This document shows positions 3,283-37,558 of a stretch of DNA of 64,000 bases, piece after piece. The translations under genes were made by a program, and so were the position numbers. The notes beneath the pieces were generated by a model that ran no database searches, was not told the origin of the DNA, and saw only the letters and a program-made list of their open reading frames with translations. The number at the start of each line of letters is the position of its first letter. Position 1 is the stretch's first letter. The stretch comes from an uncultured Candidatus Saccharibacteria bacterium (lineage in GTDB: Bacteria; Patescibacteriota; Saccharimonadia; CAILAD01; CAZGYV01): positions 26,046-90,045 of the forward strand of contig CAZGYV010000002.1 of the NCBI GenBank assembly GCA_964530725.1, in the 5' to 3' direction.

Positions 3283-3474
3283 TTAGAACATCTCCCTTCG
3301 GCTCTTGATTAAGGCTTGTACCATTGAAATCGCACTGATCGCATCGCGGTGAGGATTTTCGGCAAGTTTTGCCCCAAGCTCTGCCAGCTCACTACGATCG
3401 TAGTTAACTAGATCACCAGGATCACCCTCGCCGATAATCACCATCTGGTTGCGTAGCATTTCTTCGGTCACCAT
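3283..3474 (-). CDS. Small hypothetical protein (63 aa) upstream of and in frame with the HEPN-like ORF; possible antitoxin partner
   Basis: ATG preceded by GGAG (gacagaGGAGcttgaaATG). The track ORF 3283..3501 starts at an upstream TTG. Product MVTEEMLRNQMVIIGEGDPGDLVNYDRSELAELGAKLAENPHRDAISAISMVQALIKSRREMF. No family recognised. Confidence 0.35.
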   Translation of the reverse strand: MVTEEMLRNQMVIIGEGDPGDLVNYDRSELAELGAKLAENPHRDAISAISMVQALIKSRREMF

Positions 3475-3516
3475 TTCAAGCTCCTCTGTCGCCGTTGACA
3501 AGGTGCACGATTTGCC

Positions 3517-3545
3517 ATGATAGAGAATTTGCTAGCTGCCGTCAA
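3517..3545 (-). promoter_or_regulatory. sigma70-like promoter for the 3474->2941 two-ORF locus
   Basis: Minus strand reads TTGACG-17 nt-TATCAT, then the GGAG RBS and ATG. Confidence 0.45.
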
Positions 3546-3610
3546 GGCTTGTATGCAATAAGTTCTGCCCTGCCACAAACAAAACCATAATCAGTAAGCA
3601 AACAGTAAAA

Positions 3611-3659
3611 TCCTTTCGTCCTTTCGGACTCATCAGAATGAGTACACACTCATTGAGGA
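3611..3659 (-). ncRNA. Type III hammerhead self-cleaving ribozyme (complete catalytic core)
   Basis: Minus strand 5'-UCCUC^AAUGAGU-GUGU-ACUCAUU-CUGAUGA-GUCC-GAAA-GGAC-GAAA-GGA-3'. Helix I is a 7-bp hairpin with a GUGU loop. The core is C3-U4-G5-A6-U7-G8-A9. Helix II is GUCC/GGAC with a GAAA loop and G10.1-C11.1. G12-A13-A14 are present. A15.1-U16.1 pair and helix III is AGGA/UCCU. The cleavage triplet is C-U-C, so H17 = C. The core is almost identical to the classic sTRSV-derived CUGAUGAGUCCGUGAGGACGAAAC. Confidence 0.7.
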
Positions 3660-3717
3660 GCGGGATTTTCACCCGCCTCCCACAAGATACCCCGTGGGAT
3701 TTTTCCATCACCTCACA

Positions 3718-4257
3718 TTACCGTGCAGCAATGGTTGTCGTGGCATTCTCCGGCGGCTTATCCGCCGGAACTTCGGTCTCGTCATCAGATGCCCCTTCAG
3801 GAGCACAGGGTGGACGATAGTCCGGATTGGTATCCGGCCAAAAGTACCAGTAATACGGGCTGGCCGCATTCCACCGGTTCAACGGATTGACCGGGTCGTA
3901 CGGATCGCCGTAAACGCCATCTGACGGCCTAGGAACGTAGGTGATCCTGGAGCCGCTTGGTGGTGACAATCGATCCTGAGTCTTTGGTGCTTCCGGCATC
4001 TTTCCGGGATTGACTGGCTTCGGATTACTAGCCGAACCGGATGGTTTTCCGGTTGGCGATCCAGATGGCTTCCCACTCGATGAACCGGATGGTTTCCCAA
4101 CGGGGCTAGGTGCCGGCGATCTTACTCCGCCTGACCCCGAGCCTCCGCTCCGCGCCCCACCGCTTGATGGTGCAGCACAAGCTTGGTCGCTTGCACATGC
4201 CGCCATCAAGCCAGCGACTAATCCAGAGATGACCAGCAGAATGGTCAACCTTCTCAA
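3718..4257 (-). CDS. Secreted low-complexity lipoprotein (Pro/Ser/Gly-rich with GKPSGS repeats)
   Basis: N-terminal signal with lipobox-like LMAAC. Three GKPSGS(x) repeats reflected in DNA tandem repeats around 4030-4110. Pro-rich C-terminus. Confidence 0.6.
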   Translation of the reverse strand: MRRLTILLVISGLVAGLMAACASDQACAAPSSGGARSGGSGSGGVRSPAPSPVGKPSGSSSGKPSGSPTGKPSGSASNPKPVNPGKMPEAPKTQDRLSPPSGSRITYVPRPSDGVYGDPYDPVNPLNRWNAASPYYWYFWPDTNPDYRPPCAPEGASDDETEVPADKPPENATTTIAAR

Positions 4258-11807: not shown

Positions 11808-11881
11808 AGTTTTTTAAAATAGACAATGGGTGATTGTATCAAAAGATAAGCATTTTGTCAAGTAGGGATAGTGGTTATGTT

Positions 11882-11907
11882 AAAAGAAAAAGCCCATCTT
11901 GAGGGCT
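11882..11907 (-). terminator. Rho-independent terminator of the minus-strand structured RNA
   Basis: Minus strand: hairpin AGCCC-UCAAGAU-GGGCU followed by UUUUUCUUUU. Confidence 0.55.
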
Positions 11908-11911
11908 AAAA

Positions 11912-12490
11912 ACCTTCAAAATGGACTCAGGTGGAGTGGAAGCGGAGGGCATCAAACCTAGATGTAGGCAGGTGACGCCCTCGACGCTTCCTTCGGGCTT
12001 ACACCTCAATGCGCAAGCGCACTGAAACCCAGGAGAGAACCTCGATCTCGGACGAGGACCCCCCTTGTCTCACCAGCGATTACCAGGCACTAGTGAGATC
12101 TTACAAGAGGAGGTGGCTGCCGGAGCTTGAAAGCCCGACCCTAAAGCTTAAGCTCTAGCTCCGGCAGCCGAATCGCGCAGACTGGCGACCCTCCTCTTGG
12201 CTCTTAAGCCACCCTTGCGCAGCTACTGCCAGTGAGGCGATGATTCGCAAGCTCACCAACAGCCCACCCGCGCAAAACTCAAGAGCCTTCCTCTTACTCA
12301 GCGTCTTCCAAGGAAGGGGCAGAGCAAGGAAACCTGGCGAGGACCCCATGACTGGGAGGAAACAGGGTCCTCGCCTACAGACTTCTCCCTGGCTACGGCG
12401 ATGCGGATCGCCGCGGCGACGGGGCTGGGAGTATCCTTATGTATGAGAGAAGTCTGGCGGCTCTCCTGTCCACTAGGGAGCAGGAGAGAG
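11912..12490 (-). ncRNA. rnpB: Large structured non-coding RNA with its own promoter and terminator; candidate RNase P RNA (rnpB), assignment tentative
   Basis: There is no credible ORF. A strong sigma70 promoter lies upstream and a terminator downstream on the minus strand. Minus-strand motifs resemble RNase P: GGGAGAAGUCUGUAGGCGAGG resembles the P4 5' strand GGAGGAAAGUCCGGGCUCC. AAGGGUGGCUUAAGAGCC resembles GGGUGCGGUAAGAGCGCACC. CCUGGUAAUCGCUGG resembles CCAGGUAACGCCUGG. UGUAGGC can pair with the distal GCCUACA as a P4-like long-range helix, and the 5' GUGGA..GGAG can pair with the 3' CUCC..UCCAC as a P1-like helix. Motif order and the ~580-nt length are not fully canonical. Confidence 0.4.
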
Positions 12491-12497
12491 TGCCGCT

Positions 12498-12526
12498 ATA
12501 ATACACCCGAAACCAAGACGAGTCAA
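12498..12526 (-). promoter_or_regulatory. sigma70-like promoter of the structured RNA
   Basis: Minus strand reads TTGACT-17 nt-TATTAT. Confidence 0.55.
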
Positions 12527-12648
12527 TAGTTTTCTCGGTTTTATATCTAGAGTAAATTAGTCTGCCTTGAGCACTTAAGCTATTTACAAATCATTCATTT
12601 TCCGCTAAGATAGCCTTTGATCTAAAAAACAGGTAAAAGTAGTAAGTT

Positions 12649-16654: not shown

Positions 16655-19528
16655 TTACAGCTCGCCCCAATTCTTGCCAATCCTCACCCCTACCTCGATC
16701 GGCACGCTAAACCGGTGAATATTCTCCATCACGCGGCGCATTACTTGAACTACATCATCGACTGACTTCTCGTCGCACTCGACAATTAATTCGTCGTGAA
16801 TTTGCAAAATCATCTTGGCATTTACCGGCAGCTGGGTGGCCAGCTCGATCATTGCCAGCTTCATCATATCGGCGGCCGTCCCCTGTAATGGCATGTTAAC
16901 AGCCGCTCGCTCGGCTGCCATGCGAGTTATAAAATTACTAGAATTTACATCCGGGCAAGGTCGGCGGCGGCCAAAAATCGTGGCGGTATAGCCATCCTGG
17001 CGAGCCTGCTGTTTCACGCGCTCGATGTATTCGGCGATCCCGCGGCGAATCTCAAAATAACGATCGATGAAGCTTTTGGCCTCCTCGCGGCTCATACCGG
17101 TAGCTACTGAGAGACCATGCGGATTCATCCCATATAAAATACCGAAATTAATCGTTTTAGCAGCATAGCGCTGCTGCTTGGTAACCGATGACACGTCAAC
17201 GCCAAACATCTCCGCCGCTGTCAGTGCATGAATATCAGCGCCCTCACGAAAGGCTTCGATCACCGGCTTGTCGTCGGCCATAGCGGCCGCCAGGCGCAGC
17301 TCGATCTGCGAGTAGTCAGCGCTTATCAGCACCTTACCCTCACCCGCCACAAAGGCTTGGCGAATCTCGCGTCCCAGCTCGGTCCGAACCGGGATATTTT
17401 GCAGATTAGGATTAGTGCTCGACAGCCGGCCGGTCTGAGCGATGGCTTGATTGTAGCTGGTGTGAATGCGGCCGGTACTCGGATTGACCAATTTCGGCAG
17501 CGCGTCGGCATAAGTGCTTTTGAGCTTGGCCACCTCGCGGTATTCGAACAAATGATCGACGATCGGATGGCTACCACGCAGCTTTTCCAACTCACGAGCA
17601 GCAGTCGAGAGGCCGGTTTTGTTTTTTTTCAAGTTCCCACCATCGATTTTAAGCTTGTCAAACAAAATCACCTTGAGCTGCTGAGTGGAGTTAATATTAA
17701 AATGCTCGCCAGCTTCGCGCCAAATCGCTTCCTCCAAATCAACCAGCTTAGCATTAATTCGCTTGGCGAATCGGGCTAAAAACTTCGTATCAAGCTCAAC
17801 GCCCGTGATTTCCATCTCCGCTAAGACCGATATCAGCGGCCACTCCATCGTGGTAGCTACTTTCTCGACGCTTGGCAACTGCGCGAGCTGATGGCTCAAA
17901 GTTTCATACAGCCGCCAGGTGACATCAGCGTCTTCGGCCGCGTATTTAACAGCCTCCTCGATCGGCACTTGATTGAAGCTCTGTTGCTGCTTACTTTTTG
18001 GCCCGATTAGCTCTTCGATGTCGATCATCTCTAGGCCCAGCTCGGCAAAAGCCAGATTGGAAAGCGTCTGAGCCCGCACGATCGGATTGATCAAGAAAGC
18101 CGCTACCATCGTGTCAAAACTGATTGGCCCTAGTGTTACACCATATTTTTTTAGGACCTGGTAGTCAAACTTAATATTGTGCCCCACCTTACCAATCTGG
18201 GGATTTTCCAAGAAAGGTCTGAGCTTCTGAAGTACAGTATCAAGCGGTAGCTGACCCGGTGCAAGGTTTTCTAGCCCAGAGCTAGTTCGAGGAAGATCTG
18301 AAGCTTGCAAGCGAGGCGTAGTACTGCTACGTTGAGCGCGAACTGGAGGATCTGACGCTGAAATAGCCTGGGACTGAGAACCGGGAAGCTCATGACCGAT
18401 CGGCACGTAATAAGCCTCTCCTGATCTCCAGGAGAAACTCATACCAACCAAATTTGCCGTAATGGCATTGATATCATCTGTCTCAGTGTCAAAAGCGAAT
18501 ACTCGTTGCTGGCTTAGTTTATCAGCCAATTCTTTTAGCTTTTTTTCACTATCGACACAGGTATAGTTAACGCTTTCCAGATGTGAATGGGCTTTGTGAG
18601 GAGTCGCCGAGCTATCTGAAGCCTCATCAAACAAGGCAGTTTGAACACTAAACGTGTTCGATTTTTGGTTGGGCAATTTATTGAGCAAACTTTTAAAGCC
18701 TAGCTTGTGAAACAACTCCACTACCCGGCCGCGATCATAATCATGCAGCGCCGCGTCCTTGATAGTAAACTGAAGCGGCACATCAGCCACGATCAGGGCC
18801 AATTCATAGCTCAGATCAGCTTGGACGCGGCCGGCTTCGAGCTTCGAGCGCACGGCCGGCTTAATTTCTTCGAGATGAGCGTAGATCGAGTCGAGAGTTT
18901 TGTACCTGGCCACCAAGTCAGTCGCCGTCTTATCGCCTACCCCCTTCACGCCTGGGATATTGTCGCTGGCGTCCCCCTTGAGAGCCTTGTAGACGACGAA
19001 TTCCTCGGGAGTTAAGCCGTATTTCTCTTCTACCGCGGCCCGATCGTAGGTGATCGTATCTGAAAACCCTTTGCGCAAGGTATAAACTTTGACGTGGTCA
19101 TCAACTAATTGCAGCTCGTCCATGTCACCAGTCACGATCACGACCTCGTATTCGTTTTTGTACTCAGCCGCCAGCGTACCAATCACATCATCAGCCTCAT
19201 ATCCTGCCACACCAATCAGGGGAATAGCGAAAGTTTCGACCAGCTCACGCGTCACCGGTATCTGGACGGCCAGATCATCATCCATTTTCTTGCGCGTACC
19301 TTTGTAATCTGGAAACATATCATGGCGGAAGGTTTTACCAGGTTCGTCCCAGGCTACCGCCACATACTCTGGCTTAAGCTCGCGCAGAGCGTTGAGCATC
19401 ATGCTGGTAAAGCCGTACACACCATTGGTCGGTGTACCATCACGGGCCGTCAGGGGCGGAATGGCGTGGTAACCGCGGTGCAGCAGCGCGTGACCGTCGA
19501 AAATAACAAATTTCTTGCGAGCGTTCAT
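16655..19528 (-). CDS. polA: DNA polymerase I
   Basis: 957 aa with a 5'-3' exonuclease domain, a 3'-5' exo-like region and the polymerase motifs RRxAKxxNFGxxYG and HDE. An S/T/P-rich insertion lies between the nuclease and polymerase parts. Confidence 0.95.
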   Translation of the reverse strand: MNARKKFVIFDGHALLHRGYHAIPPLTARDGTPTNGVYGFTSMMLNALRELKPEYVAVAWDEPGKTFRHDMFPDYKGTRKKMDDDLAVQIPVTRELVETFAIPLIGVAGYEADDVIGTLAAEYKNEYEVVIVTGDMDELQLVDDHVKVYTLRKGFSDTITYDRAAVEEKYGLTPEEFVVYKALKGDASDNIPGVKGVGDKTATDLVARYKTLDSIYAHLEEIKPAVRSKLEAGRVQADLSYELALIVADVPLQFTIKDAALHDYDRGRVVELFHKLGFKSLLNKLPNQKSNTFSVQTALFDEASDSSATPHKAHSHLESVNYTCVDSEKKLKELADKLSQQRVFAFDTETDDINAITANLVGMSFSWRSGEAYYVPIGHELPGSQSQAISASDPPVRAQRSSTTPRLQASDLPRTSSGLENLAPGQLPLDTVLQKLRPFLENPQIGKVGHNIKFDYQVLKKYGVTLGPISFDTMVAAFLINPIVRAQTLSNLAFAELGLEMIDIEELIGPKSKQQQSFNQVPIEEAVKYAAEDADVTWRLYETLSHQLAQLPSVEKVATTMEWPLISVLAEMEITGVELDTKFLARFAKRINAKLVDLEEAIWREAGEHFNINSTQQLKVILFDKLKIDGGNLKKNKTGLSTAARELEKLRGSHPIVDHLFEYREVAKLKSTYADALPKLVNPSTGRIHTSYNQAIAQTGRLSSTNPNLQNIPVRTELGREIRQAFVAGEGKVLISADYSQIELRLAAAMADDKPVIEAFREGADIHALTAAEMFGVDVSSVTKQQRYAAKTINFGILYGMNPHGLSVATGMSREEAKSFIDRYFEIRRGIAEYIERVKQQARQDGYTATIFGRRRPCPDVNSSNFITRMAAERAAVNMPLQGTAADMMKLAMIELATQLPVNAKMILQIHDELIVECDEKSVDDVVQVMRRVMENIHRFSVPIEVGVRIGKNWGEL

Positions 19529-19608
19529 AGATTTGATTATACAGGATCAGGCAGCGCTTTGGTCCCTAAATTTGTCTGTTCTGACCGATTGACAACACTT
19601 CTTTATCA

Positions 19609-19637
19609 TTGACTTTTTATAGTTTTTATGGTAATAT
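19609..19637 (+). promoter_or_regulatory. sigma70-like promoter of the M23 peptidase 1 gene, followed by a ~90-nt structured 5' UTR
   Basis: TTGACT-17 nt-TAATAT. The UTR contains the hairpin cgtgctt...aagcacg. Confidence 0.45.
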
Positions 19638-19729
19638 GTCACTTTCGTGCTTGAGGGCTCTTGGCGGAGTAAGCACGAGATTGTACCCTACAACACCTCC
19701 ACTGTCTACCCTCAAAGACCGGAGTAAAA

Positions 19730-22012
19730 ATGAAACGCTTTATCGTTACGTTACTGCTGCTGGGCGCACTAGGCATGGTAGCGGGAGTCGGTCACAAGCC
19801 GCCTACCGCCCAAGCTCAAAGTGCCCCGGCAGCCAGCTGCACCCTGCAGGCGGACACCTACTGGAGTGAGGAAGCGGTCGGTCGGCTATACGCCAACTAC
19901 CCGTTCTACCTCACCAGTGCGCTACGTAAGGGCGCCGACTGGAAGGTACTGGCAGTGTTCCACATGATGGAACATAGTCTAGTACTCGATAATCCAGCCA
20001 ACGGGCAGGGCTTCATGCAGCTCTACAGCTACGAGAAGGCTCATCCGGATGCTTTTCCGGCCAAAGCCGACTTGTCAGCTGAAGAGGCAGTCAATCAGCT
20101 TGATCTGGCGTATGACGAAATCCAGGGCAAGGCCAAGGGTAAACTGACGGCCACCCCAGATCTCGAAGTACTCTACCAGGCGGCAGCCGCCTACAATGGG
20201 CTTGGGTTCCACAAGCGATGGGAAAACCACCCCTATGTGGTCAACGACCCGCCCAACGGCGTCATGCTGAAAAAGCCTAGCCGTGACGGCGGTCCGGTCG
20301 ACACCGTGTCGAAGCAAAATGGCTTCAAGCCTCTCTACGAGAGCTTGAGCGCCCAATGCCCGACTGGTGCGACCCTACTCGACCCGCGACTCGATACCAA
20401 TCGAGAAGCAATCGAGCGCTGCCCGTCGCTGGGTGATCCGGCCAATGTATTCCCGCTGACGATCGACGCTGTTGGCATCGCCAATGGCTCGGACAAGGAG
20501 GGAGATTGGCTAGTCTGGACGCCGGGTGCGACCAACCAGCACCACGACTACGACGCCGGCGATGTCCACGCGCCAACTGGTACACCAGTGGTGTCGATGA
20601 CGGCCGGCCAAGTAGTCGACGTGCGTGCCGGTGAGTGGCAGGACGGTGGCTGGCAGCCAGCCAGGCTGCGAGTCCGGACTGCCGACGGCTGCGTCCTCTG
20701 GTACCAACACCTGCTCAACGGCAGCGTGGTGGTCAACGAGGGCGACGAGGTCGTGGCTGGGCAATTGCTCGGCCAGGTCGGCACGCCGCAGGACGCGATG
20801 AGTACAGCGCCGCACTTGCACTTCGATGTAACAGCGAACCTTGAAGATTCGCAAGCTACTCGGAGTCGCGACTACTGCGCCAACCATCGGGCGCGGTGCG
20901 AAGCACTAACCTTCGACATCCAGCCGGTCCTGTCCAAGCTGTTTTTGACCAAAACAGTCTCGGGCACTCCGGTTAATGCCAGCCAGGTGCCAGTTCCGGT
21001 CGTGGTCAACCAAGACCAGATTCCGGAGCTGGAGAGCCTACTCTCGCTGCCAGCCCACTCGCGCTATCTAGTGCTTGCCGGGCTGTTGGTTGCATTTGTG
21101 CTGGCCGTCAGCACGCAACTGTCACCGCGGCTTAAGTTCCGGTGGTCTGATTCCATTATCGCTCCAACCAGTGGCGGCAAAGCCATTGGCTCGGGGCGAC
21201 GTGATCAGGCTGCTTGGCTTCAAGTCAGTCAGTCCCAAACCGATGTCCACCCGCTGGTCATCATTTGGGATAAGCTCTACGCCGGCATGCATTTCTTCCT
21301 GTTGGGCGTGGCACCGGGCCTGATCGGCCTTGGTCTAGCCACCCACCCGCACTGGAAGTTCCGCGGTCTGCCACTGGGAGCAATCCTGGACTGGCAGTGG
21401 ATCGGTATGGATAGGGCCCTGACGGAAGTTCCGTTCTGGTTCGTCCTGCCGGCTCTCTTGATCGCCATTTTCACCGTGATCTATGGCTTTTTTGCCCTAG
21501 TCACACTGCTGAATGTGGCGGTCTCGCTCGCAGCCAAGAGTGGGATGTGGCACGGTGTGCGAGCTTTTTGGTCGCCCCGCAACCAGTGGTTGGTGGCCAA
21601 ACGACTACGACGCTTTCTGCCCACCCTCGGCCTGATCCAGCTCGAGCTTATGATGCTCTACTGGGTCATGGGAATGAGTGAAAATGCGGCTTGGCGGATT
21701 GGCTGGGCGATCGCGCTAATCGCGGCCCCGACCATCTTCCATTTCCACCGTCAGATCTTCACGACGATCGGCTGGCTGGCAGCACTGCCGGTGCTACTGC
21801 TGATCGCCATCGCACTGAAGATCATGATCCGGCGTGAAGTCAACGCCGCCGTCAAGCAAGCTCGCACCCATCGAGTCGATCGCCAGATCAGGCTCTATGA
21901 CTGGGCGCTGAGCAAAGCGTTTCACCCCAAACACCCAGCTCCCGCGCCCGAGCCGGCTGACGATCGTCAGACCGAACTTGAGCGCAGCTGGGATGAGGAA
22001 AGCTCCGTTTAA
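19730..22012 (+). CDS. Secreted M23-family (LytM-like) metallopeptidase with a C-terminal polytopic membrane domain
   Basis: Signal peptide MKRFIVTLLLLGALGMVAG. M23 motifs HHDYDAGD and APHLHFDV. About 7 predicted TM helices in the last 300 aa. Confidence 0.75.
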   Translation: MKRFIVTLLLLGALGMVAGVGHKPPTAQAQSAPAASCTLQADTYWSEEAVGRLYANYPFYLTSALRKGADWKVLAVFHMMEHSLVLDNPANGQGFMQLYSYEKAHPDAFPAKADLSAEEAVNQLDLAYDEIQGKAKGKLTATPDLEVLYQAAAAYNGLGFHKRWENHPYVVNDPPNGVMLKKPSRDGGPVDTVSKQNGFKPLYESLSAQCPTGATLLDPRLDTNREAIERCPSLGDPANVFPLTIDAVGIANGSDKEGDWLVWTPGATNQHHDYDAGDVHAPTGTPVVSMTAGQVVDVRAGEWQDGGWQPARLRVRTADGCVLWYQHLLNGSVVVNEGDEVVAGQLLGQVGTPQDAMSTAPHLHFDVTANLEDSQATRSRDYCANHRARCEALTFDIQPVLSKLFLTKTVSGTPVNASQVPVPVVVNQDQIPELESLLSLPAHSRYLVLAGLLVAFVLAVSTQLSPRLKFRWSDSIIAPTSGGKAIGSGRRDQAAWLQVSQSQTDVHPLVIIWDKLYAGMHFFLLGVAPGLIGLGLATHPHWKFRGLPLGAILDWQWIGMDRALTEVPFWFVLPALLIAIFTVIYGFFALVTLLNVAVSLAAKSGMWHGVRAFWSPRNQWLVAKRLRRFLPTLGLIQLELMMLYWVMGMSENAAWRIGWAIALIAAPTIFHFHRQIFTTIGWLAALPVLLLIAIALKIMIRREVNAAVKQARTHRVDRQIRLYDWALSKAFHPKHPAPAPEPADDRQTELERSWDEESSV

Positions 22013-22106
22013 ATACGGATAAACTGGCTCGACCTTATCTTTTACAGGTAAGGTCGAGCCCCCGACCTAAGAGCTGAATATTAATTACGTCAACTTTTAG
22101 GTCGAG

Positions 22107-23333
22107 CTATTTTCCGCGAAATGAATCTATAAAGAAGTCCATCAGCGAGCGCCGACGCGGCTTGTTCTTGCCCTTAGCACTCATACCGGTCGCGTATTCG
22201 GCCACATTGCTATAGCCCGAACCCCTCAAGCCATCTAGCTTTGTACGCTCCTTGGAGGCATGCTCGCTATCCTGAAATCTGACACCCTCTTCGACCGCCC
22301 GCAGCGCTTCTCGGCTAGGCCGCTCCGCCCGCCTAAGAATACCGCGCCGATTGGTTGCCGCTGCCTCGGTGGTAACGGTGCTAATACTGATAATCTCGCC
22401 GGTTTTGCGGCTGCGGCGCTCGACAAGCAAGGTGTTGCCACTCTTATCGGCGGCGCATTTATAGTAAGTTTCAAGCACTCGGCCACCAGCCGAGCTCTTG
22501 CTTTTGAGCTGGAAAAACGGCTTTGATTCTGCCTGCAAAGCAACGTATACGTCATCATACATTTTAGCAAGCTCGGCCTGACTAAGCTTGCCATCGGCAT
22601 GGTGGTCGATCACTCTCGGCGCGCCACCTTCGAAATGCGCCAGCGACTGCGACACCATGCGGGTGACTTCACTTTTAATATCTTGGTACTTTTGCTCATC
22701 CCCGGCAGCTTTGTCGCGCTCGGCTTGAACACGCGCAGATTGCAGCTCGTCAGCAGCGCCGGCCATACCCCGAGCTCGCAGGGCTTCAGCCGCCTGGGTG
22801 TGAGGATTTGGATTCTCGACTAATCGTCCACTAAAATCTTCCTGGTAATGGGTTTGTTGATCAGCGGATATTTTCTCTAGATCTTGCGCCTCACCAAATT
22901 TACCGGCCTTTTTTAGCTCGGCGATTTTTAGCTGAATATCGCGTTCGGCTAGCGACATCACCTTCCGTCCACCAGCATGCTCTTCAAAATTATCTTTGAA
23001 AGAGCCATATTTCCCGTCTGGAGTCTCGGGTGGCTTGGCGGATTCTCCTTCTTGCGGCCGTGTCGGCGCTTCAGGCTCTGGCTCTTCTTGGTTTGGCTCT
23101 GGCTTAGATTCTGATTCTGGCTGCGGTCGAGTCGGCGCTTCGGGCTTAGTCGCTGGTTCTTCTTGTTCTGGGGTAGGCTGCTCTGGGCTTCCTGGCCTTG
23201 CAGGTTGACTTTTTAGGACCTCGTCTATTTCATCGATCTGTCGTTGTGCTTGCTTTGCCAGGTCTTCGGCCAGTTCAGCATTAGCACTAGGAGTGCTACT
23301 CTCTGGTGGGTTTGGACGTTGTGCTTCCGACAT
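22107..23333 (-). CDS. Hypothetical acidic Pro/Glu-rich protein with EAPTRPQ repeats
   Basis: 408 aa with no signal peptide. N-terminal E/P-rich repeats also appear as DNA repeats at 23040-23200. C-terminal basic region. Lies between the two M23 peptidase genes. Confidence 0.5.
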   Translation of the reverse strand: MSEAQRPNPPESSTPSANAELAEDLAKQAQRQIDEIDEVLKSQPARPGSPEQPTPEQEEPATKPEAPTRPQPESESKPEPNQEEPEPEAPTRPQEGESAKPPETPDGKYGSFKDNFEEHAGGRKVMSLAERDIQLKIAELKKAGKFGEAQDLEKISADQQTHYQEDFSGRLVENPNPHTQAAEALRARGMAGAADELQSARVQAERDKAAGDEQKYQDIKSEVTRMVSQSLAHFEGGAPRVIDHHADGKLSQAELAKMYDDVYVALQAESKPFFQLKSKSSAGGRVLETYYKCAADKSGNTLLVERRSRKTGEIISISTVTTEAAATNRRGILRRAERPSREALRAVEEGVRFQDSEHASKERTKLDGLRGSGYSNVAEYATGMSAKGKNKPRRRSLMDFFIDSFRGK

Positions 23334-23413
23334 TGCTTTTGTTCCTGATTATTATCGACATTATAGCATTTATCATAATTTTGCTACAGACATAACAATT
23401 ATCTCATTGTCTA

Positions 23414-23442
23414 TTGACAAAATGGCATTTTTATACTATTAT
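23414..23442 (+). promoter_or_regulatory. sigma70-like promoter of the M23 peptidase 2 gene
   Basis: TTGACA-17 nt-TATTAT, then an AGGAG RBS and the ATG at 23485. Confidence 0.5.
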
Positions 23443-23484
23443 TACAACGTCTTGTTGTTTCGAGAGATCTACAGAGGAGTAAGG

Positions 23485-25167
23485 ATGAACGAGACAACGC
23501 TTAACGCCCCCTCGAAGCTGAAAGTGGCCAGAAAGCTGGTCGTCTTCTTCTTAATCGGGGCACTATTCGGTAGCCCGATGATCGCCATCGGCGCGCCACC
23601 AGAACCGGTCAGCCCAGACCTCATTCCAACGACGTTGGAGGTTTGGGCGCGGGACGTCTTGGTCGGCGTTGCCAATGTACGGCAACTACCGCCAGCCCAG
23701 CTGGTCACGCAAGAAAATATGGTTTTCATGCTGGCCTGGTCCAAGGGTGAAGACGGTGGAGTCGACGGTAACTGCGGGGCGTTTAACCCGCTCAACACCA
23801 AGTACATGGGTGTTGAGGCCGGAGGCCAATGGGCCTGCGGGGATGAAACTGTCAACTATCCCACCTACCCCGATGGCGTAGAGGCGGCTGTCTATACCAT
23901 CACTGGAAAGATTAAGACTTTCCAGACTCGGATGGCTGATGCGCTGTCCGCAGGGCTAACCGCCGAAGAGCTGGCTCATGTTCTGGCCACGCCGGAAGAG
24001 TTCCAGTTCAGCGAAGAACAAAGGCAAGCCTGCTGGGCCTGCCCAGGTGGAGCACGGTATGAAGCCAGTGTGGCGGGCGTGATCGCTCGCTTCAAGGGTG
24101 ACCCGGCCGCATACCGCGCCCGAGCCGACAAACGGCTCGACGGGGCAGCCGAGTTTGTACCGCTCCCAGAAGAGGAGATGATCGCTCCCAAGCCGGAGTT
24201 TGACGACTCCGTACCGGTCACGATGACCGCCGACGGTGCCTTCGCGTTCCCTTTGCGGGTGAACGCCGAAGACATCATCAACGGCATTGACGGCGGTATC
24301 AAGCGCGATCGCGCTTGGTGCAAGGGCAGCGAGCGGGCATGCCACCATGACTATCCGGCGGCCGACATCACCGTACCAACCGGTACGATGGTAGTGGCAC
24401 CGGAAGCCGGCACTATCATTGCCGCCGCCGCTTTGTCGGGCGATCGCAATGAGTACGTGAAGATCCAGCACAATGGAGATGCCTGTACTCTACTGCTCCA
24501 TATGCTTCCAGGAAGCCTAATGGTAGGCGTCGGCGACACGGTCACAACCGGTACTCCGATCGGCCGTGTCGGCACTGGCGAAGACGCAGTGGCAGCGAGT
24601 TCAGGATCGGGTACCTTCCCGCACCTGCACTTCGAAGCCACCAACTGCGCTGGCAGTCGTGCCGGACGGCAGCGGATGGATCCGCAGGCTCAACTCAAAT
24701 ATATGTTTGAGTCCCTGCCCCACCGCGGCAAGCTCGTATTGCTACCCCCACCCCACCCTCAGCAGCTAATTGCTAAGGAGCCGCCCGGACTGCACGTTAG
24801 TGCGGTCTGCTCAGAGCAGACCGCAGACGGCGAATGTCTGGGTGCACTCGGCGTCCGGCTCGCTAAGCTAGCCAATACCGCGCCTGCGGTTACGCCGGCG
24901 GCCGTCTCGCCAGACGGCGCTCTTGCGATAGCAGCGGCAGCCGCGGGCAATCCGCCCGCACTGCCGGCAGTCGCCGATGAGCAGCAAGCGGAGACGCCGG
25001 AAAGCGACGTCGGACACGATCCGCCGCCCTTCCACACTCCACCAATCGGCTGGAAACTCTATCTGATGTTTCTAGTCATCTGGACAATCGCCTGCGGCGC
25101 GCTCTACAAGCGCGACCAAAGGCGGCTGGCCGAGCTAGCACGAACACAAGCCGTGATCGTGCTCTAA
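23485..25167 (+). CDS. Secreted M23-family metallopeptidase, paralog 2, with a C-terminal TM anchor
   Basis: Start at MNETTLNAPSKLKVARKLVVFFLIGALFGSPMIAIGA (signal/TM). M23 motifs HHDYPAAD and FPHLHFEA. C-terminal TM LYLMFLVIWTIACGALY. The track ORF 23293.. includes an AT-rich leader. Confidence 0.7.
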   Translation: MNETTLNAPSKLKVARKLVVFFLIGALFGSPMIAIGAPPEPVSPDLIPTTLEVWARDVLVGVANVRQLPPAQLVTQENMVFMLAWSKGEDGGVDGNCGAFNPLNTKYMGVEAGGQWACGDETVNYPTYPDGVEAAVYTITGKIKTFQTRMADALSAGLTAEELAHVLATPEEFQFSEEQRQACWACPGGARYEASVAGVIARFKGDPAAYRARADKRLDGAAEFVPLPEEEMIAPKPEFDDSVPVTMTADGAFAFPLRVNAEDIINGIDGGIKRDRAWCKGSERACHHDYPAADITVPTGTMVVAPEAGTIIAAAALSGDRNEYVKIQHNGDACTLLLHMLPGSLMVGVGDTVTTGTPIGRVGTGEDAVAASSGSGTFPHLHFEATNCAGSRAGRQRMDPQAQLKYMFESLPHRGKLVLLPPPHPQQLIAKEPPGLHVSAVCSEQTADGECLGALGVRLAKLANTAPAVTPAAVSPDGALAIAAAAAGNPPALPAVADEQQAETPESDVGHDPPPFHTPPIGWKLYLMFLVIWTIACGALYKRDQRRLAELARTQAVIVL

Positions 25168-25176
25168 GTTCCCACC

Positions 25177-25243
25177 GGTCCGACCTCTTCACAAAAAAAG
25201 CTTTTATAAGCCGTGAGGAGGTCGGACCGTCGACCTAAGTTTT
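25177..25243 (+). terminator. Long hairpin terminator / structured 3' UTR downstream of peptidase 2
   Basis: ggtccgacctc...(30-nt loop)...gaggtcggacc, then gtCGACCTAAGttttt. Shares an architecture and the CGACCTAAG segment with the element at 22030..22070. Confidence 0.45.
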
Positions 25244-25287
25244 TAAAAAATTGAAAATTTAGCTCGGCTTTATGCTAGACTTATTTT

Positions 25288-25647
25288 ATGGAAGAAGAAA
25301 ACCCGCACAGACAAGGCAATTTTGAAGACGGCCAACCCAACCTGCCAACTGAAGAAGAGGAGGCACAACACAGAAAAGCAGTCAGACAGTGGCTGTTTCA
25401 AGAACAAATAGAAGCCAGTAGAATACGAGAAGCGAATCGTGTCGTTGATGACAACCAGGCGCGCGAAGAAGATACGGATGAAAACGTTAGTGAAGCCAGG
25501 CGCGACCAAACATCCGAAAGGTTAAACCCGGACCCGCCAAAGGCTAGCGATGAGACAGTTGCCGAAGAGGCTGCTAAGGCAAGAGAACTTATCAGAAAAG
25601 CTCAAGAAAACGCAAGGCGTCCTAAGCCTCCCGCAAATAATCAATAA
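25288..25647 (+). CDS. Hypothetical acidic protein
   Basis: 119 aa, E/D/R-rich; no recognisable domain. Confidence 0.35.
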   Translation: MEEENPHRQGNFEDGQPNLPTEEEEAQHRKAVRQWLFQEQIEASRIREANRVVDDNQAREEDTDENVSEARRDQTSERLNPDPPKASDETVAEEAAKARELIRKAQENARRPKPPANNQ

Positions 25648-25705
25648 CAAAACACTCCCTTCCTACAAGAGAGTGTTTTGACTTTTCAGCTAGCTGACCA
25701 ATTTT

Positions 25706-26821
25706 TCAAGCCAAGTAATCACGCAGACGCTTGGAATCTTTGTGTTTGCGCAGCTTCGCCAATGCCTTAGCTTCGATTTGGCGAATCCGCTCGCGGGTCA
25801 CACCAAATTCCTGACCGACTTCCTCAAGCGTATGGCCACGCCCGTCCTCTAAACCAAACCGCATCCGCAAGATTTTCTGCTCTCGCGGCGTCAAAAGCGA
25901 CAGCGTCTCGTCGATATGCTCCTTCAAAAGCTCATAAGTGGCGGCCTCCTCCGGGCTGACGCCATCCTCATCTTGGATAAAATCAGCCAGCCTCGACTCG
26001 TCATCTTCGCCGACCGTCGCGTCCAGGCTAGTAGTATCCTGGCTAATTTTTATGATGTGATTGACCTTGTCGACATCAATCTCCATCTCAGCAGCAATTT
26101 CCTCGGGCGCCGGCTCGCGGCCAAGCTCCTGAGTCAGGCGGCGTTGAGTACGAATGAGTTTATTGATCGTTTCGACCATGTGAACTGGGATACGAATTAC
26201 CCTGGCCTGGTCAGCGATCGCTCGTGTGATCGCCTGGCGAATCCACCAGGTTGCGTAGGTCGAGAATTTGAATCCCTTAGTGTAATCAAATTTCTCAACC
26301 GCTCGCAGCAGGCCGGTGTTGCCCTCCTGAATAAGGTCCAGCAGATCCAGCCCGCGACCAATGTATTTTTTAGCGATACTAACCACCAGACGCATATTGG
26401 CCTCGGCCAAAGCGTCTTTAGCCGCCTTGTCACCCTGACCAATCCGCTTAGCCAGCGCGACCTCATCTTCAGCGTTAATCAGCGGAATACGGCCGATTTC
26501 GCGCAAATACAAACGCACCGAATCATCGGCGATATCTTTGATGTAATCTTCCGAGACAGCATTCTCAATATCTTCTTCGGGCTCGGTCGCCCAAATCAGC
26601 TTGTCTTTTTGGTCGGTGATCTCGACGCCCTGATCCATCAGAGCCGTGTACAAATCATCGAGCGTCTCGACGTTCTCCTCCGCCTCGGGAACAGCCGAAA
26701 AAATTTCCTGCTGCGTGACAAAACCTTGCTCTCGACCCTTGGTGATTAGCCGTTCGACTTCGGGCGAAAATTCAACTTTTTCATCAGGCTCTGCGGCCTG
26801 ATCTTTTGCTTTTTTTGGCAT
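25706..26821 (-). CDS. rpoD: RNA polymerase primary sigma factor
   Basis: Regions 2-4 are present, including [33 protein letters not shown] and the region 4.2 [27 protein letters not shown]. Confidence 0.95.
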
Positions 26822-26829
26822 AAAAAAGC

Positions 26830-28596
26830 TTACTCCTCTCGTATTAATGCTTGATACTCATCCAATAGCGCGGTAGCTTCGGATTTTTTATCAACAGCCT
26901 CAGCTTCAGCAATTTGCTTGGCTAGACGCCGCTTATTAAGTTCTCGGTTATATTTTTGCAAATGATGGACTTGGGTGTAGGCTTCGAGCCTAATATCGTG
27001 CTCGTCGACTGACGAGTATTCTTCTTCTCCCCGTAACGATAGGATTTTAGCATCATTCCCTCGATCTTTCAAGGCTTTGGCAATCTCATTCAAGCTGGCG
27101 TTTGGCTTTTTGGTCAAAGCCGCAAAGATAGGCCGGTTCTGATCCGAGATATCGTCTAGCTTAAGATCAGCTAAAGCTTCCCTGGTGTAGGCAAAAGCCA
27201 GCACGACTTCCAGTAACTGATTCTCGATCGCGATTCTTTTTGGTGGTTTGGCCTTGGTTGAGGGTTGGCTCATCGCTGACTCATCACTCAACTCAGATCT
27301 AGCCATGCTAGGCGAGCTAACATCAACTTGACTCAGCTTACGATGAATCGACTGAGCGCTAATGATCAAACGCTCCGACAGCCGCCTGATGTAGTGATCG
27401 CGCTCGACTTCATCCTGCAACATCTTAATAATTGGCAAAAGAAAATCACTGGCCTGTTTTTTACCCGCCGCTGAACTCAGATCATAGCGTTTGCTGGCCA
27501 AATCGAAAAGATAATCAACCGCGTACTGAGCGTCTTTGACCGCCGCCGCCCAAGCCACCTTGTCCTTTTTAACCAATTCATCGGGGTCTTTGGCGCCACC
27601 TTGAGCGTAATTAATAACACTCAAGCGCACTTTGGCTTCAGCCGCCAGCTCAATCGCTCGAATAGTCGCCGCCACCCCCGCCTCATCACTATCGAGAGCC
27701 AGCTTGATATTCTTCGTTAGCCGGGAGATGATTTTCAATTGCTGAGCGGTCAACGCCGTACCTGAAACGGCCACGACGTTGCGCACATCGGCATTTGCCA
27801 AGCCGATCACGTCCATATTGCCCTCGACGATCACGACCTCATCGCTATCTCGAATCGCTTCTTTGGCCTGGCTAAGACCAAAAATCGCGGTCGACTTGTT
27901 GTAGATCGGAGTTTGCGGCGTATTGATGTATTTGGCCGCCTTGGCCTCATTATCGAGAATTCGCGCCGAAAAGCCGATCGGCCGGCCTTGCACGTCGTAG
28001 ATCGGAAAAATAACACGGCCGCGAAAAAGATCGTAAACCGTTTTTGAGCCCGGCTTGCGGCCAGCCAAGCCACAGGCCACCAGCTCATCTTGCTTAAAGC
28101 CTTTTTTAGTTAAAAAATCAGTCAAAGCCGCCCAGCTGTCCGGCCCGTAGCCAAGCTTGAAAGTCTTAATGACGCCCTTGCTCAAGCCACGCTCTGTAAG
28201 CAAATAGTCAAGTGCGTGCCGATTCCTGGCCAAACAAGCGTGGTAATAGCCGACAGCCAGCTCCATCGCCGCATAAAGCCGCTGCTTATTATCCCTCGGC
28301 ATCTCGCCTCGTCCCCGTGGCTTGAGCTCGACTCCGGCTCGGCGAGCCAAAATCTCCAGTGCTTCACGGAAATCCACCCCTTCCATCATCTGCACAAAGG
28401 TAAAAATATCTCCGCCCTGGCCACTAGAAAAATCATGCCAGATACCTTTGTCTGGACTGACCATGAAGCTGGGTGTTTTTTCCTGCTTAAACGGTGATAA
28501 ACCCTTAAAGTTGCGGCCGGCCGGCTTGAGCTGGACATAACTTCCAACCACCTCGACAACATCAAGACGTTGTTTTATCTCATCAACTTCGTTCAT
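26830..28596 (-). CDS. dnaG: DNA primase DnaG with a degenerate (non-zinc) N-terminal zinc-ribbon domain
   Basis: TOPRIM motif [12 protein letters not shown]. The N-terminus [13 protein letters not shown]...[10 protein letters not shown] aligns to CPFHNEKTPSFTV...YHCFGCGAHG but all four Zn ligands are replaced. 8-nt gap to rpoD (operon). Confidence 0.85.
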
Positions 28597-37450: not shown

Positions 37451-37558
37451 ACTCCCCCAGCCCCCAACTTATTCCTTTTTGGGATGGGTTGGGGCGCTCC
37501 CCTTAAGTCATCAAACTTTTGATAGTTTAAGCCGGGGCGAGCTATAATAACTATCGTA

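Follow-up and report, generated by a model that had tools for sequence, protein, structure and literature searches.

Conserved palindromes at the 3' ends of genes are known from the repetitive extragenic palindromic (REP) sequences and bacterial interspersed mosaic elements (BIMEs) of enterobacteria, the tuberculosis Rho-independent terminators (TRITs) of Mycobacterium tuberculosis, and the paired DNA-uptake sequences of Neisseria. Such elements are often paired and act as exonuclease barriers or terminators, and they are dispersed in tens to hundreds of copies per genome. Ordinary terminators, to our knowledge, show no conservation of stem-base sequence across genomes. Here we analyzed a 64,000-nucleotide (nt) stretch of DNA from an uncultured Candidatus Saccharibacteria bacterium (contig CAZGYV010000002.1, positions 26,046 to 90,045 of the forward strand; hereafter, the window), in which two genes encoding M23 peptidases, designated M23-A and M23-B, are each followed by a twin hairpin with conserved stem bases. 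In contrast to REP- and BIME-type palindromes, this element is present in at most two copies per genome, in one interval and in one orientation.

A twin hairpin behind two M23 peptidase genes

The shared element begins 9 to 13 nt past the stop codon of each M23 gene. CGACCTAAG occurs at exactly two sites in the 64 kb, 22063 and 25231 (0.25 expected), and the pattern AGGTCG-N4-8-CGACC is found in the window only at the two M23 gene ends (0.07 expected; 0 of 100 shuffles). The initial annotation of this DNA had noticed a similar RNA element after each peptidase gene, and the exact, nonrandom placement of the motif bears this out. It had further described a long hairpin followed by a downstream complementary copy. 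Three such segments do exist, but a fourth had been missed: TTAGGTCG at 22097-22104 and TTAGCTCG at 25259-25266, each of which pairs with the CGACCTAAG copy 25 to 30 nt upstream. Since the downstream CGACCTAAG has its own partner, both hairpins are able to form together. The element thus comprises two hairpins, listed here for the copies behind M23-A (W1) and M23-B (W2).

22026..22060, + strand: W1 hairpin 1, 15-bp stem GGCUCGACCUUAUCU / AGGUAAGGUCGAGCC
22063..22104, + strand: W1 hairpin 2, CGACCUAAGAG ... CUUUUAGGUCG
25176..25229, + strand: W2 hairpin 1, 17-bp stem CGGUCCGACCUCUUCAC / GUGAGGAGGUCGGACCG
25229..25268, + strand: W2 hairpin 2, GUCGACCUAAG ... UUUAGCUCGGC, with one C.C mismatch

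In RNAfold, W1 folded as two tandem hairpins at -43 kcal/mol (z = -7.2) and W2 did so at -38.4 kcal/mol (z = -7.7), reaching -49 kcal/mol with enough 3' context. The initial annotation had proposed that the 3' arm of the hairpin could pair with the downstream copy instead, giving mutually exclusive, switch-like structures. This did not hold: when enforced, the alternative helix carried a penalty of +12.7 to +23.3 kcal/mol in each of the six copies examined, and its pair probability in the ensemble ranged from 1e-14 to at most 5e-8. The apparent switch arises because both hairpins share one stem-base core.

Seven distinct copies of the element were found in four related Saccharimonadia genomes (two each in the window, L007, and L012/L013, and one in L015), all within the interval between polA and rpoD and in the same orientation. 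The loci compared with the window are as follows, with protein identity to the window where given; ORF denotes an open reading frame, and its length is in amino acids (aa).

L007 (73%; syntenic): element after both M23 genes
L012/L013 (64%; polA-linked): M23-A followed by the element, and a shortened, 331-aa M23-B followed by a degenerate copy
L015 (no M23 gene; polA-rpoD interval): element after an unrelated 168-aa ORF, beside the rpoD 3' end
L001, L009, and L025 (67-70%; between nusA and UPF0102/rnhB): ordinary GC hairpin plus T-run
L021 (M23-B relative; polA-rpoD interval): ordinary GC hairpin plus T-run

Given the L015 copy behind an unrelated ORF, the element goes with the polA-rpoD interval and not strictly with the M23 genes. 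In every copy, hairpin 1 starts 8 to 25 nt past the stop codon; its stem has 10 to 17 bp, or 12 to 17 bp when only the six copies with a retained CGACCU core are counted, copy L13b having lost the core of hairpin 1. Hairpin 2, with 9 to 20 bp, begins 0 to 2 nt after hairpin 1. The two together fold at -32 to -49 kcal/mol in the six copies folded over the full span (L12 left out).

A covariance model (R1) built on six copies recovered all seven at 38 to 87 bits and nothing else convincing in the ~150 to 170 kb of this clade's sequence searched. One match in the window, at 37455-37540 (20.6 bits), was discarded because it is a nested, terminator-like structure of another kind that lacks the core. 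A strict pattern of the element, run over 185,579 species genomes, hit one contig, from a metagenome-assembled genome named 'Candidatus Saccharimonadia bacterium,' whose RpoD and PolA are 85% and 62% identical to those of the window; on this basis, too, the window very likely belongs to Saccharimonadia. A pattern scan of viral contigs and a protein scan yielded no further copies. Five loci from a metagenome pattern scan (L016 to L020) were set aside as GC-rich sequences or direct-repeat arrays unrelated to the element. In two of these Joint Genome Institute (JGI) metagenome contigs (L016, ~930-1000; L019, 1-50), the palindrome TAGGTCG-N5-CGACCTAAG forms direct-repeat arrays with periods of ~48 nt (L016) and 34 nt (L019); they turned up only because the core words are shared.

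Across the seven sense-strand copies, 93.4% of cells were paired, 15 of 29 pairs had changed on both sides, and the covariation score was 0.455, compared to at most 0.14 with slid partners and with none of 500 shuffles reaching the observed score, although these counts carry the caveat that the alignment was fitted to the model. Among the non-Watson-Crick cells, 17 were G.U and 3 were A.C (binomial P = 0.003). Moreover, the sense strand folded 7 to 12 kcal/mol better in 6 of 7 copies (summed, -297 versus -243 kcal/mol). As the stems covary and the G.U cells favor the sense strand, selection appears to act on RNA. The stem bases are constant, hairpin 1 retaining CGA/UCG and hairpin 2 CGACC(U)AAG/(C)UUAGGUCG, while loops, apical stems, and neighboring proteins have diverged. 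With copies in four genomes and with covariation, the element is conserved in relatives; nor is it the leftover of a simple duplication, given that the two genes share no other nucleotide similarity and that their catalytic domains are 37% identical. Rfam covariance models gave no relevant match at E <= 10 over 19000-26000 and, at gathering score, nothing in the whole window except one tRNA. No aptamer-like conserved single-stranded region was seen in the 3' element.

What the 3' element may do

The account that we favor, to which we give about an even chance, is that the element acts constitutively, at the level of RNA, to form or protect the 3' end of the transcript. Each M23 peptidase mRNA would end in a conserved tandem stem-loop, both hairpins of which would form together and constitutively in sense-strand RNA. 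There they would terminate or pause transcription, block 3'-to-5' exonucleases, and, between convergent genes, insulate against read-through; a lineage-specific factor, protein or RNase, may also recognize the stems. Besides the position just past the stop codon, the stable joint folding, the restriction of the copies to this locus, the covariation, and the strand bias described above, two further observations speak for such a 3'-end function. The element occupies the same slot as the ordinary terminators of L001, L009, L025, and L021, and there is a need for insulation, with strong promoters on both genes and W1 lying between convergent genes. The conserved stem-base sequence CGACCU...AGGUCG (in hairpin 2, CGACCUAAG...UUAGGUCG) suggests recognition by a factor.

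Several points weigh against this account. As judged from the aligned copies, the conservation of the stem bases exceeds the needs of a generic terminator or exonuclease barrier, CGACCUAAG being identical in five copies while the neighboring proteins are only ~65 to 73% identical. A good U-tract follows hairpin 2 in only one or two of the seven copies (UUUUUAUG in L7b and, weakly, UAUUUU in W1), so efficient intrinsic termination is not assured, and canonical terminators made of a hairpin and a U-run serve other genes of the window. The copy in L015 follows a non-M23 ORF, and the caveat on the fitted alignment belongs here as well. The one part picked out by a terminator scan was the short middle helix of W2. 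With conserved CGACCU/AGGUCG stem bases and mostly no U-tract, the element does not look like an ordinary intrinsic terminator.

The same stem bases could instead mark a sequence-specific module of the 3' untranslated region (UTR), in which a trans-acting protein or RNase binds CGACCU/AGGUCG and co-regulates the stability or translation of both hydrolase mRNAs. Such a module would fit a sequence conserved far past structural need, a core that recurs in both hairpins, behind both paralogues, and in three genomes, the confinement of the copies to one locus, and the missing U-tracts of most of them. Nonetheless, we consider it rather unlikely, as the analysis turned up no candidate for the binding protein, the conserved residues are located within helices, where recognition of RNA by its sequence is seldom seen, the hairpin-1 core is lost in L13b, and L015 retains the element without any M23 gene. 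A protein-bound regulatory module overlaps with the 3'-end function favored above, and both could coexist. Unlikely to a greater degree is a role at the level of DNA, whether as a recombination or attachment site, a mobile footprint (REP or miniature inverted-repeat transposable element [MITE], attC-like, or an IS200/IS605 end), or an operator for a dimeric transcription factor at AGGTCG-N5-6-CGACCT. This explanation stays alive because gene content in the polA-rpoD interval varies; M23-A is also found at a second locus, the central 6-N5/6-6 palindrome is like recombinase or transcription-factor core sites, and hairpin 2 of the M23-B copies lies just upstream of the conserved -10 motif of the next ORF. 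On the other hand, the excess of G.U over A.C and the energy advantage of the sense strand point to RNA, and compensatory changes reach well outside the hexamers. There are at most two copies per genome; the strict pattern matched once among 185,579 species genomes and never among viral contigs, and REP- or MITE-type dispersal is not seen: the 64 kb hold two copies, and the ~150 kb searched at related loci beyond the interval hold none. The interval encodes neither an integrase nor a transposase, the two copies of one genome have different spacers (AGCCCC versus GACCGT), and no attC R''/R' consensus is present.

The remaining explanations are both highly improbable. A riboswitch- or attenuator-like switch would have the 3' arm of the hairpin alternate between its upstream arm and the downstream CGACCUAAG copy. 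The three-segment complementarity that such a switch requires exists, and the central palindrome AGGTCG-N5-6-CGACCT has a fixed spacing in the six copies keeping the core; however, the alternative helix is 12.7 to 23.3 kcal/mol less stable, with a pair probability of at most 5e-8, and the downstream segment has a covarying partner of its own. Moreover, the element is 3' of the ORF, so that where genes converge it would have no downstream target to gate, and there is neither an Rfam match nor a conserved unpaired ligand pocket. We give just as little credence to a chance resemblance or a decaying, functionless remnant of a tandem duplication. Both genes are indeed paralogous and terminator hairpins are common after genes, but the pattern, expected 0.07 times in the window, was found exactly at two gene ends; it recurs at orthologous positions in four genomes, with covariation, and the 37% protein identity is confined to one domain, with no other nucleotide similarity. 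Several known repeat classes were considered and rejected as well: a DNA-uptake sequence, for which the motif is far too rare in the window; a diversity-generating retroelement (DGR) hairpin, there being no reverse transcriptase or template repeat nearby; a Xer/dif site, whose sequence is unlike; and a repeat of the clustered regularly interspaced short palindromic (CRISPR) or toxin-antitoxin kind, since the element is not a direct-repeat array.

The M23-A leader and the polA-rpoD interval

Both M23 genes are bracketed by polA (16655-19528, - strand) and rpoD/dnaG (25706-28596, - strand), and G+C over the two peptidase genes rises to 0.57 to 0.60, up from ~0.50. Besides the hairpins listed above, the interval holds the following features.

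19609..19637, + strand: M23-A promoter, TTGACT, 17-nt spacer, extended -10 TGgTAATAT (consensus scan)
19644..19729, + strand: M23-A 5' leader (alignment and consensus fold of six orthologues)
19730..22012, + strand: M23-A, 760 aa (ORF, Pfam match, six orthologues)
22107..23333, - strand: middle ORF, 408 aa, Pro/Glu-rich repeat N terminus and conserved C-terminal domain
23414..23442, + strand: M23-B promoter, TTGACA, 17-nt spacer, TATTAT (11 of 12 positions fit the consensus)
23485..25167, + strand: M23-B, 560 aa (ORF, Pfam match, gene call on other contigs)
25288..25647, + strand: acidic ORF 3' of W2, 119 aa, with its own extended -10 TGCTAGACT at 25271-25279

In six M23-A orthologues from both genomic contexts, the gene is preceded by a TTGAC-N17-TGgTAATAT promoter, of which TTGAC and TATGGTAATAT are conserved in 6 of 6, and by a leader of ~86 nt. 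In the first helix of the leader (P1), 19644-19653 pairs with 19670-19679 around a conserved GAGGG bulge (19653-19657), and the pairing survives several double changes, with UUCGUGCUUG/UAAGCACGAG in the window and UUCGCGUACG/CGUGCGUGA in L001. In the second (P2), CCUCC (19696-19700) and GUCU (19704-19707) pair with AGAC (19716-19719) and the Shine-Dalgarno GGAG (19721-19724); across the orthologues, an upstream CCUCC or UCCAUCU pairs with this GGAG in the second hairpin. The P2 loop carries a conserved CCCUC (19709-19713) complementary to the GAGGG bulge, suggestive of a putative loop-bulge contact. The folding energy of the leader alone is unremarkable (z = -1.6), and the reality of the hairpin rests on its conservation across orthologues, not on folding energy. 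A model of the leader (R2) matched only upstream of M23-A orthologues, and no Rfam family, ydaO included, matched at E <= 10. Thus, the structured 5' UTR of ~90 nt noted in the initial annotation exists and is conserved in six orthologues, while the suggestion that it might be a known riboswitch, such as ydaO/c-di-AMP, found no match among the Rfam covariance models. The leader appears to sequester the Shine-Dalgarno sequence and is a plausible translational control element.

M23-A orthologues also stand at a second position, between nusA and UPF0102/rnhB (L001, 10001-12346; L009, 10001-12337; L025, 1517-3835). Since they have the same promoter and leader there but an ordinary terminator, gene and leader have moved as a unit. 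A bolder proposal, which we advance tentatively and think probably wrong, is that the twin hairpin and the M23-A leader are previously undescribed Saccharimonadia cis-regulatory RNAs, read by a dedicated factor or ligand to time hydrolase deployment, with CGACCU as the protein-recognition site of a small hydrolase regulon.

The middle ORF, convergent with M23-A and divergent from M23-B, has its stop codon 2 nt from the end of W1 hairpin 2. Its Pro/Glu-rich N terminus holds a 55-nt imperfect direct repeat; an orthologue in L007 is 54% identical over 286 aa and conserves the C-terminal domain, and scans of Pfam, PHROGs, and NCBIfam gave no family match. The initial annotation had described it as a divergently oriented acidic Pro/Glu-repeat protein; the repeat was confirmed, but the orientation is divergent only with respect to M23-B, and with 17.2% D+E versus 15.2% K+R the protein is only mildly acidic overall. 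The 119-aa acidic ORF has counterparts in L007 (153 aa) and L013 (141 aa). Its -10 directly follows hairpin 2, so the 3' half of the element overlaps the upstream promoter region of this ORF; the extended -10 is conserved as TATGCTAGACT in the window and L013 (~3886-3896) and as TATGTGCTACACT in L007 (~12116-12126). Among related Saccharimonadia, the gene content of the polA-rpoD interval (19529-25705 in the window) varies. The window and L007 have M23-A, the opposite-strand ORF, M23-B, and the small acidic ORF; L012/L013 have M23-A, the 331-aa M23-B without N-domain or transmembrane (TM) helix, and the small acidic ORF; L021 has a 332-aa ORF, an 841-aa M23-B relative, and ORFs of 94 and 184 aa; and L015 has only the 168-aa ORF and the hairpin element.

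Two further structured sites were observed elsewhere in the window. At 3615-3654 (- strand; intergenic 3283-3717), a subthreshold match to Hammerhead_3 (RF00008) scored 23.4 bits, compared to a gathering score of 48.5 (E = 0.016 in a 601-nt search), with its CUGAUGAG ... CGAAA cores intact. By eye, stem I (AAUGAG/CUCAUU), stem II (GUCC-GAAA-GGAC), a stem III of ~4 bp, and a CUC cleavage triplet can be drawn, which makes it a possible minimal type III hammerhead ribozyme. The second, 11808-12648, comprises 841 nt without an ORF of >=90 aa and folds at approximately -359 kcal/mol (-0.42 kcal/mol per nt) with many long perfect hairpins. It matched no Rfam family at E <= 1 and no transfer-messenger RNA by ARAGORN, and it could represent a large structured RNA of no assigned class or a cluster of repeats.

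The two peptidases and comparison with known systems

Both proteins belong to family M23: Pfam Peptidase_M23 (PF01551) matched M23-A at aa 278-370 (E = 1.2e-14; 54.7 bits) and M23-B at aa 293-387 (E = 2.1e-14; 53.9 bits), compared to a gathering cutoff of 28.7, and their PDB sequence matches include lysostaphin, LytM, and DipM. An alignment of the two proteins extends over the catalytic domain only (37% identity over 156 aa; E = 4e-19), and PHROGs and NCBIfam recognized only the M23 part of either. The initial annotation was thus right in seeing two paralogous, membrane-associated M23 peptidases that both carry HHDYxAxD and HLH. The HLH is common to both proteins and invariant (H362/H364 in M23-A). 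The first metal motif reads HHDYDAGD in M23-A (20540-20563) and HHDYPAAD in M23-B (24352-24375), in place of the canonical HxxxD of M23 enzymes, and the conserved Asp before xxxPTGTPV sits 6 to 7 residues past the His pair, compared to 4 in HxxxD. From this spacing, HHDYxAxD may define an M23 subfamily with an altered metal-binding loop.

M23-A consists of a signal-like segment (aa 1-23, ending in AQAQ), a helical N-domain, the M23 domain (aa ~270-370), and a conserved polytopic membrane domain (aa ~440-705), in which ~5 to 7 hydrophobic helices are predicted within aa 442-704, compared to the 7 TM helices noted initially. Its six orthologues, 64 to 100% identical, are conserved over the full length, membrane domain included, and a full-length AlphaFold model of low confidence (pLDDT 36, from a six-sequence alignment) shows the same C-terminal hydrophobic helices. 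The N-domain contains E81-H-S83, GFMQ (94-97), AYNG (154-157), and YVV (169-171), ordered and invariant in the six orthologues. E-S, G-L-M-Q, A-Y-N-x-G, and Y-V are the ordered motifs of family-1 lytic transglycosylases (SLT). The N-domain had no SLT Pfam match and no curated family, the best being Phage_lysozyme2 at E = 0.14; a profile search found no PDB relative, and a search for homologous proteins with the N-domain alone was empty. Its motifs suggest a lytic-transglycosylase-like domain, a likeness that falls short of demonstrated membership.

In M23-B, a signal or anchor segment (hydrophobic, aa 14-38) precedes an N-domain (aa ~41-224), the M23 domain (aa ~290-390), and a single C-terminal TM helix (aa 521-540), as the initial annotation had it. 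We placed its start at ATG 23485 rather than at GTG 23293 of the longest ORF on account of a Shine-Dalgarno GAGGAG, the promoter at 23414-23442, and the 560-aa gene call on other contigs. In a database clustered at 90%, M23-B has only two relatives, and its N-domain has 59 among 1.8 billion representatives, fused to M23, NlpC/P60, Amidase_5, VanY, or GDSL modules; this domain family keeps an invariant Glu (AWxxGEGGG) and an FNPLNT motif. A model of the N-domain (pLDDT 89, from a 20-sequence alignment) had no significant fold match in the PDB, the weak top matches being lysozyme-like enzymes. It resembles modules of uncharacterized multidomain proteins of Caudovirales and a phage M23 peptidase (probability 0.98 to 1.0; TM-score 0.5), and its matches to a phage lysin and LT_GEWL were weaker. 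A profile search against PDB sequences was empty, and no curated family matched, so both N-domains stay unassigned, as first noted; hhalign detected no homology between them. With N-domains that look lysozyme-like joined to M23, the two proteins would be bifunctional peptidoglycan hydrolases. M23-A and M23-B are probably membrane-tethered wall hydrolases that pair a lysozyme-like N-domain with an M23 endopeptidase; that they act on a host cell wall is speculation.

Little is understood of how Saccharibacteria, which spend their lives attached to other bacteria, remodel their own wall or that of the host. Several parts of the locus lend themselves to testing. Its two hydrolases have strong promoters and membrane anchors, and each probably has two catalytic activities. 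The locus also includes a member of a glycosidase-like domain family without a name, found elsewhere alongside M23, NlpC/P60, VanY, and amidase modules, as well as a polytopic membrane domain. Finally, there are two conserved RNA structures without an Rfam match, a leader that would hide the Shine-Dalgarno sequence and the 3' twin hairpin. If regulatory, these RNAs would join the small number of cis-acting RNA controls reported from bacteria of the candidate phyla radiation; if the hairpins are terminators only, they would make a modest case of noncanonical, sequence-conserved terminators in a Saccharimonadia clade.

Fusions of a glycosidase with M23 have already been reported among the VirB1 homologues of Patescibacteria (PMC12102498). 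The two hydrolases are like VirB1-like PrgK, TraG(pIP501), and phage tail lysins in that a lysozyme- or lytic-transglycosylase-like module is fused to M23 and a membrane anchor is present. They differ from such bifunctional hydrolases of monoderm conjugation and type IV secretion systems (T4SS) and of phage virions in that no T4SS or phage genes are nearby, the neighbors being polA, rpoD, and dnaG, that M23-A has a polytopic C-terminal domain of ~6 to 7 helices without a family match, and that HHDYxAxD replaces HxxxD.

For the RNA element, riboswitch and attenuator platforms share consecutive, mutually complementary segments that could in principle pair alternatively, but the twin hairpin lies 3' of the ORF, its alternative fold is 13 to 23 kcal/mol worse, and it has neither an aptamer nor an Rfam match. 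The attC sites of integrons are likewise structured, imperfect palindromes at gene 3' ends amid variable gene content; in contrast to them, the twin hairpin has no integrase and no GTTRRRY/RYYYAAC ends, comprises two hairpins rather than one bulged hairpin, and has a strand bias that fits coding-strand RNA. With intrinsic and bidirectional terminators it has in common a stable GC-containing hairpin a few nucleotides past the stop codon, the slot taken by the terminators of orthologues, and a copy between convergent genes. It departs from intrinsic terminators in its two long adjacent hairpins, in a U-tract that is weak or absent in most copies, and in its conserved stem bases.

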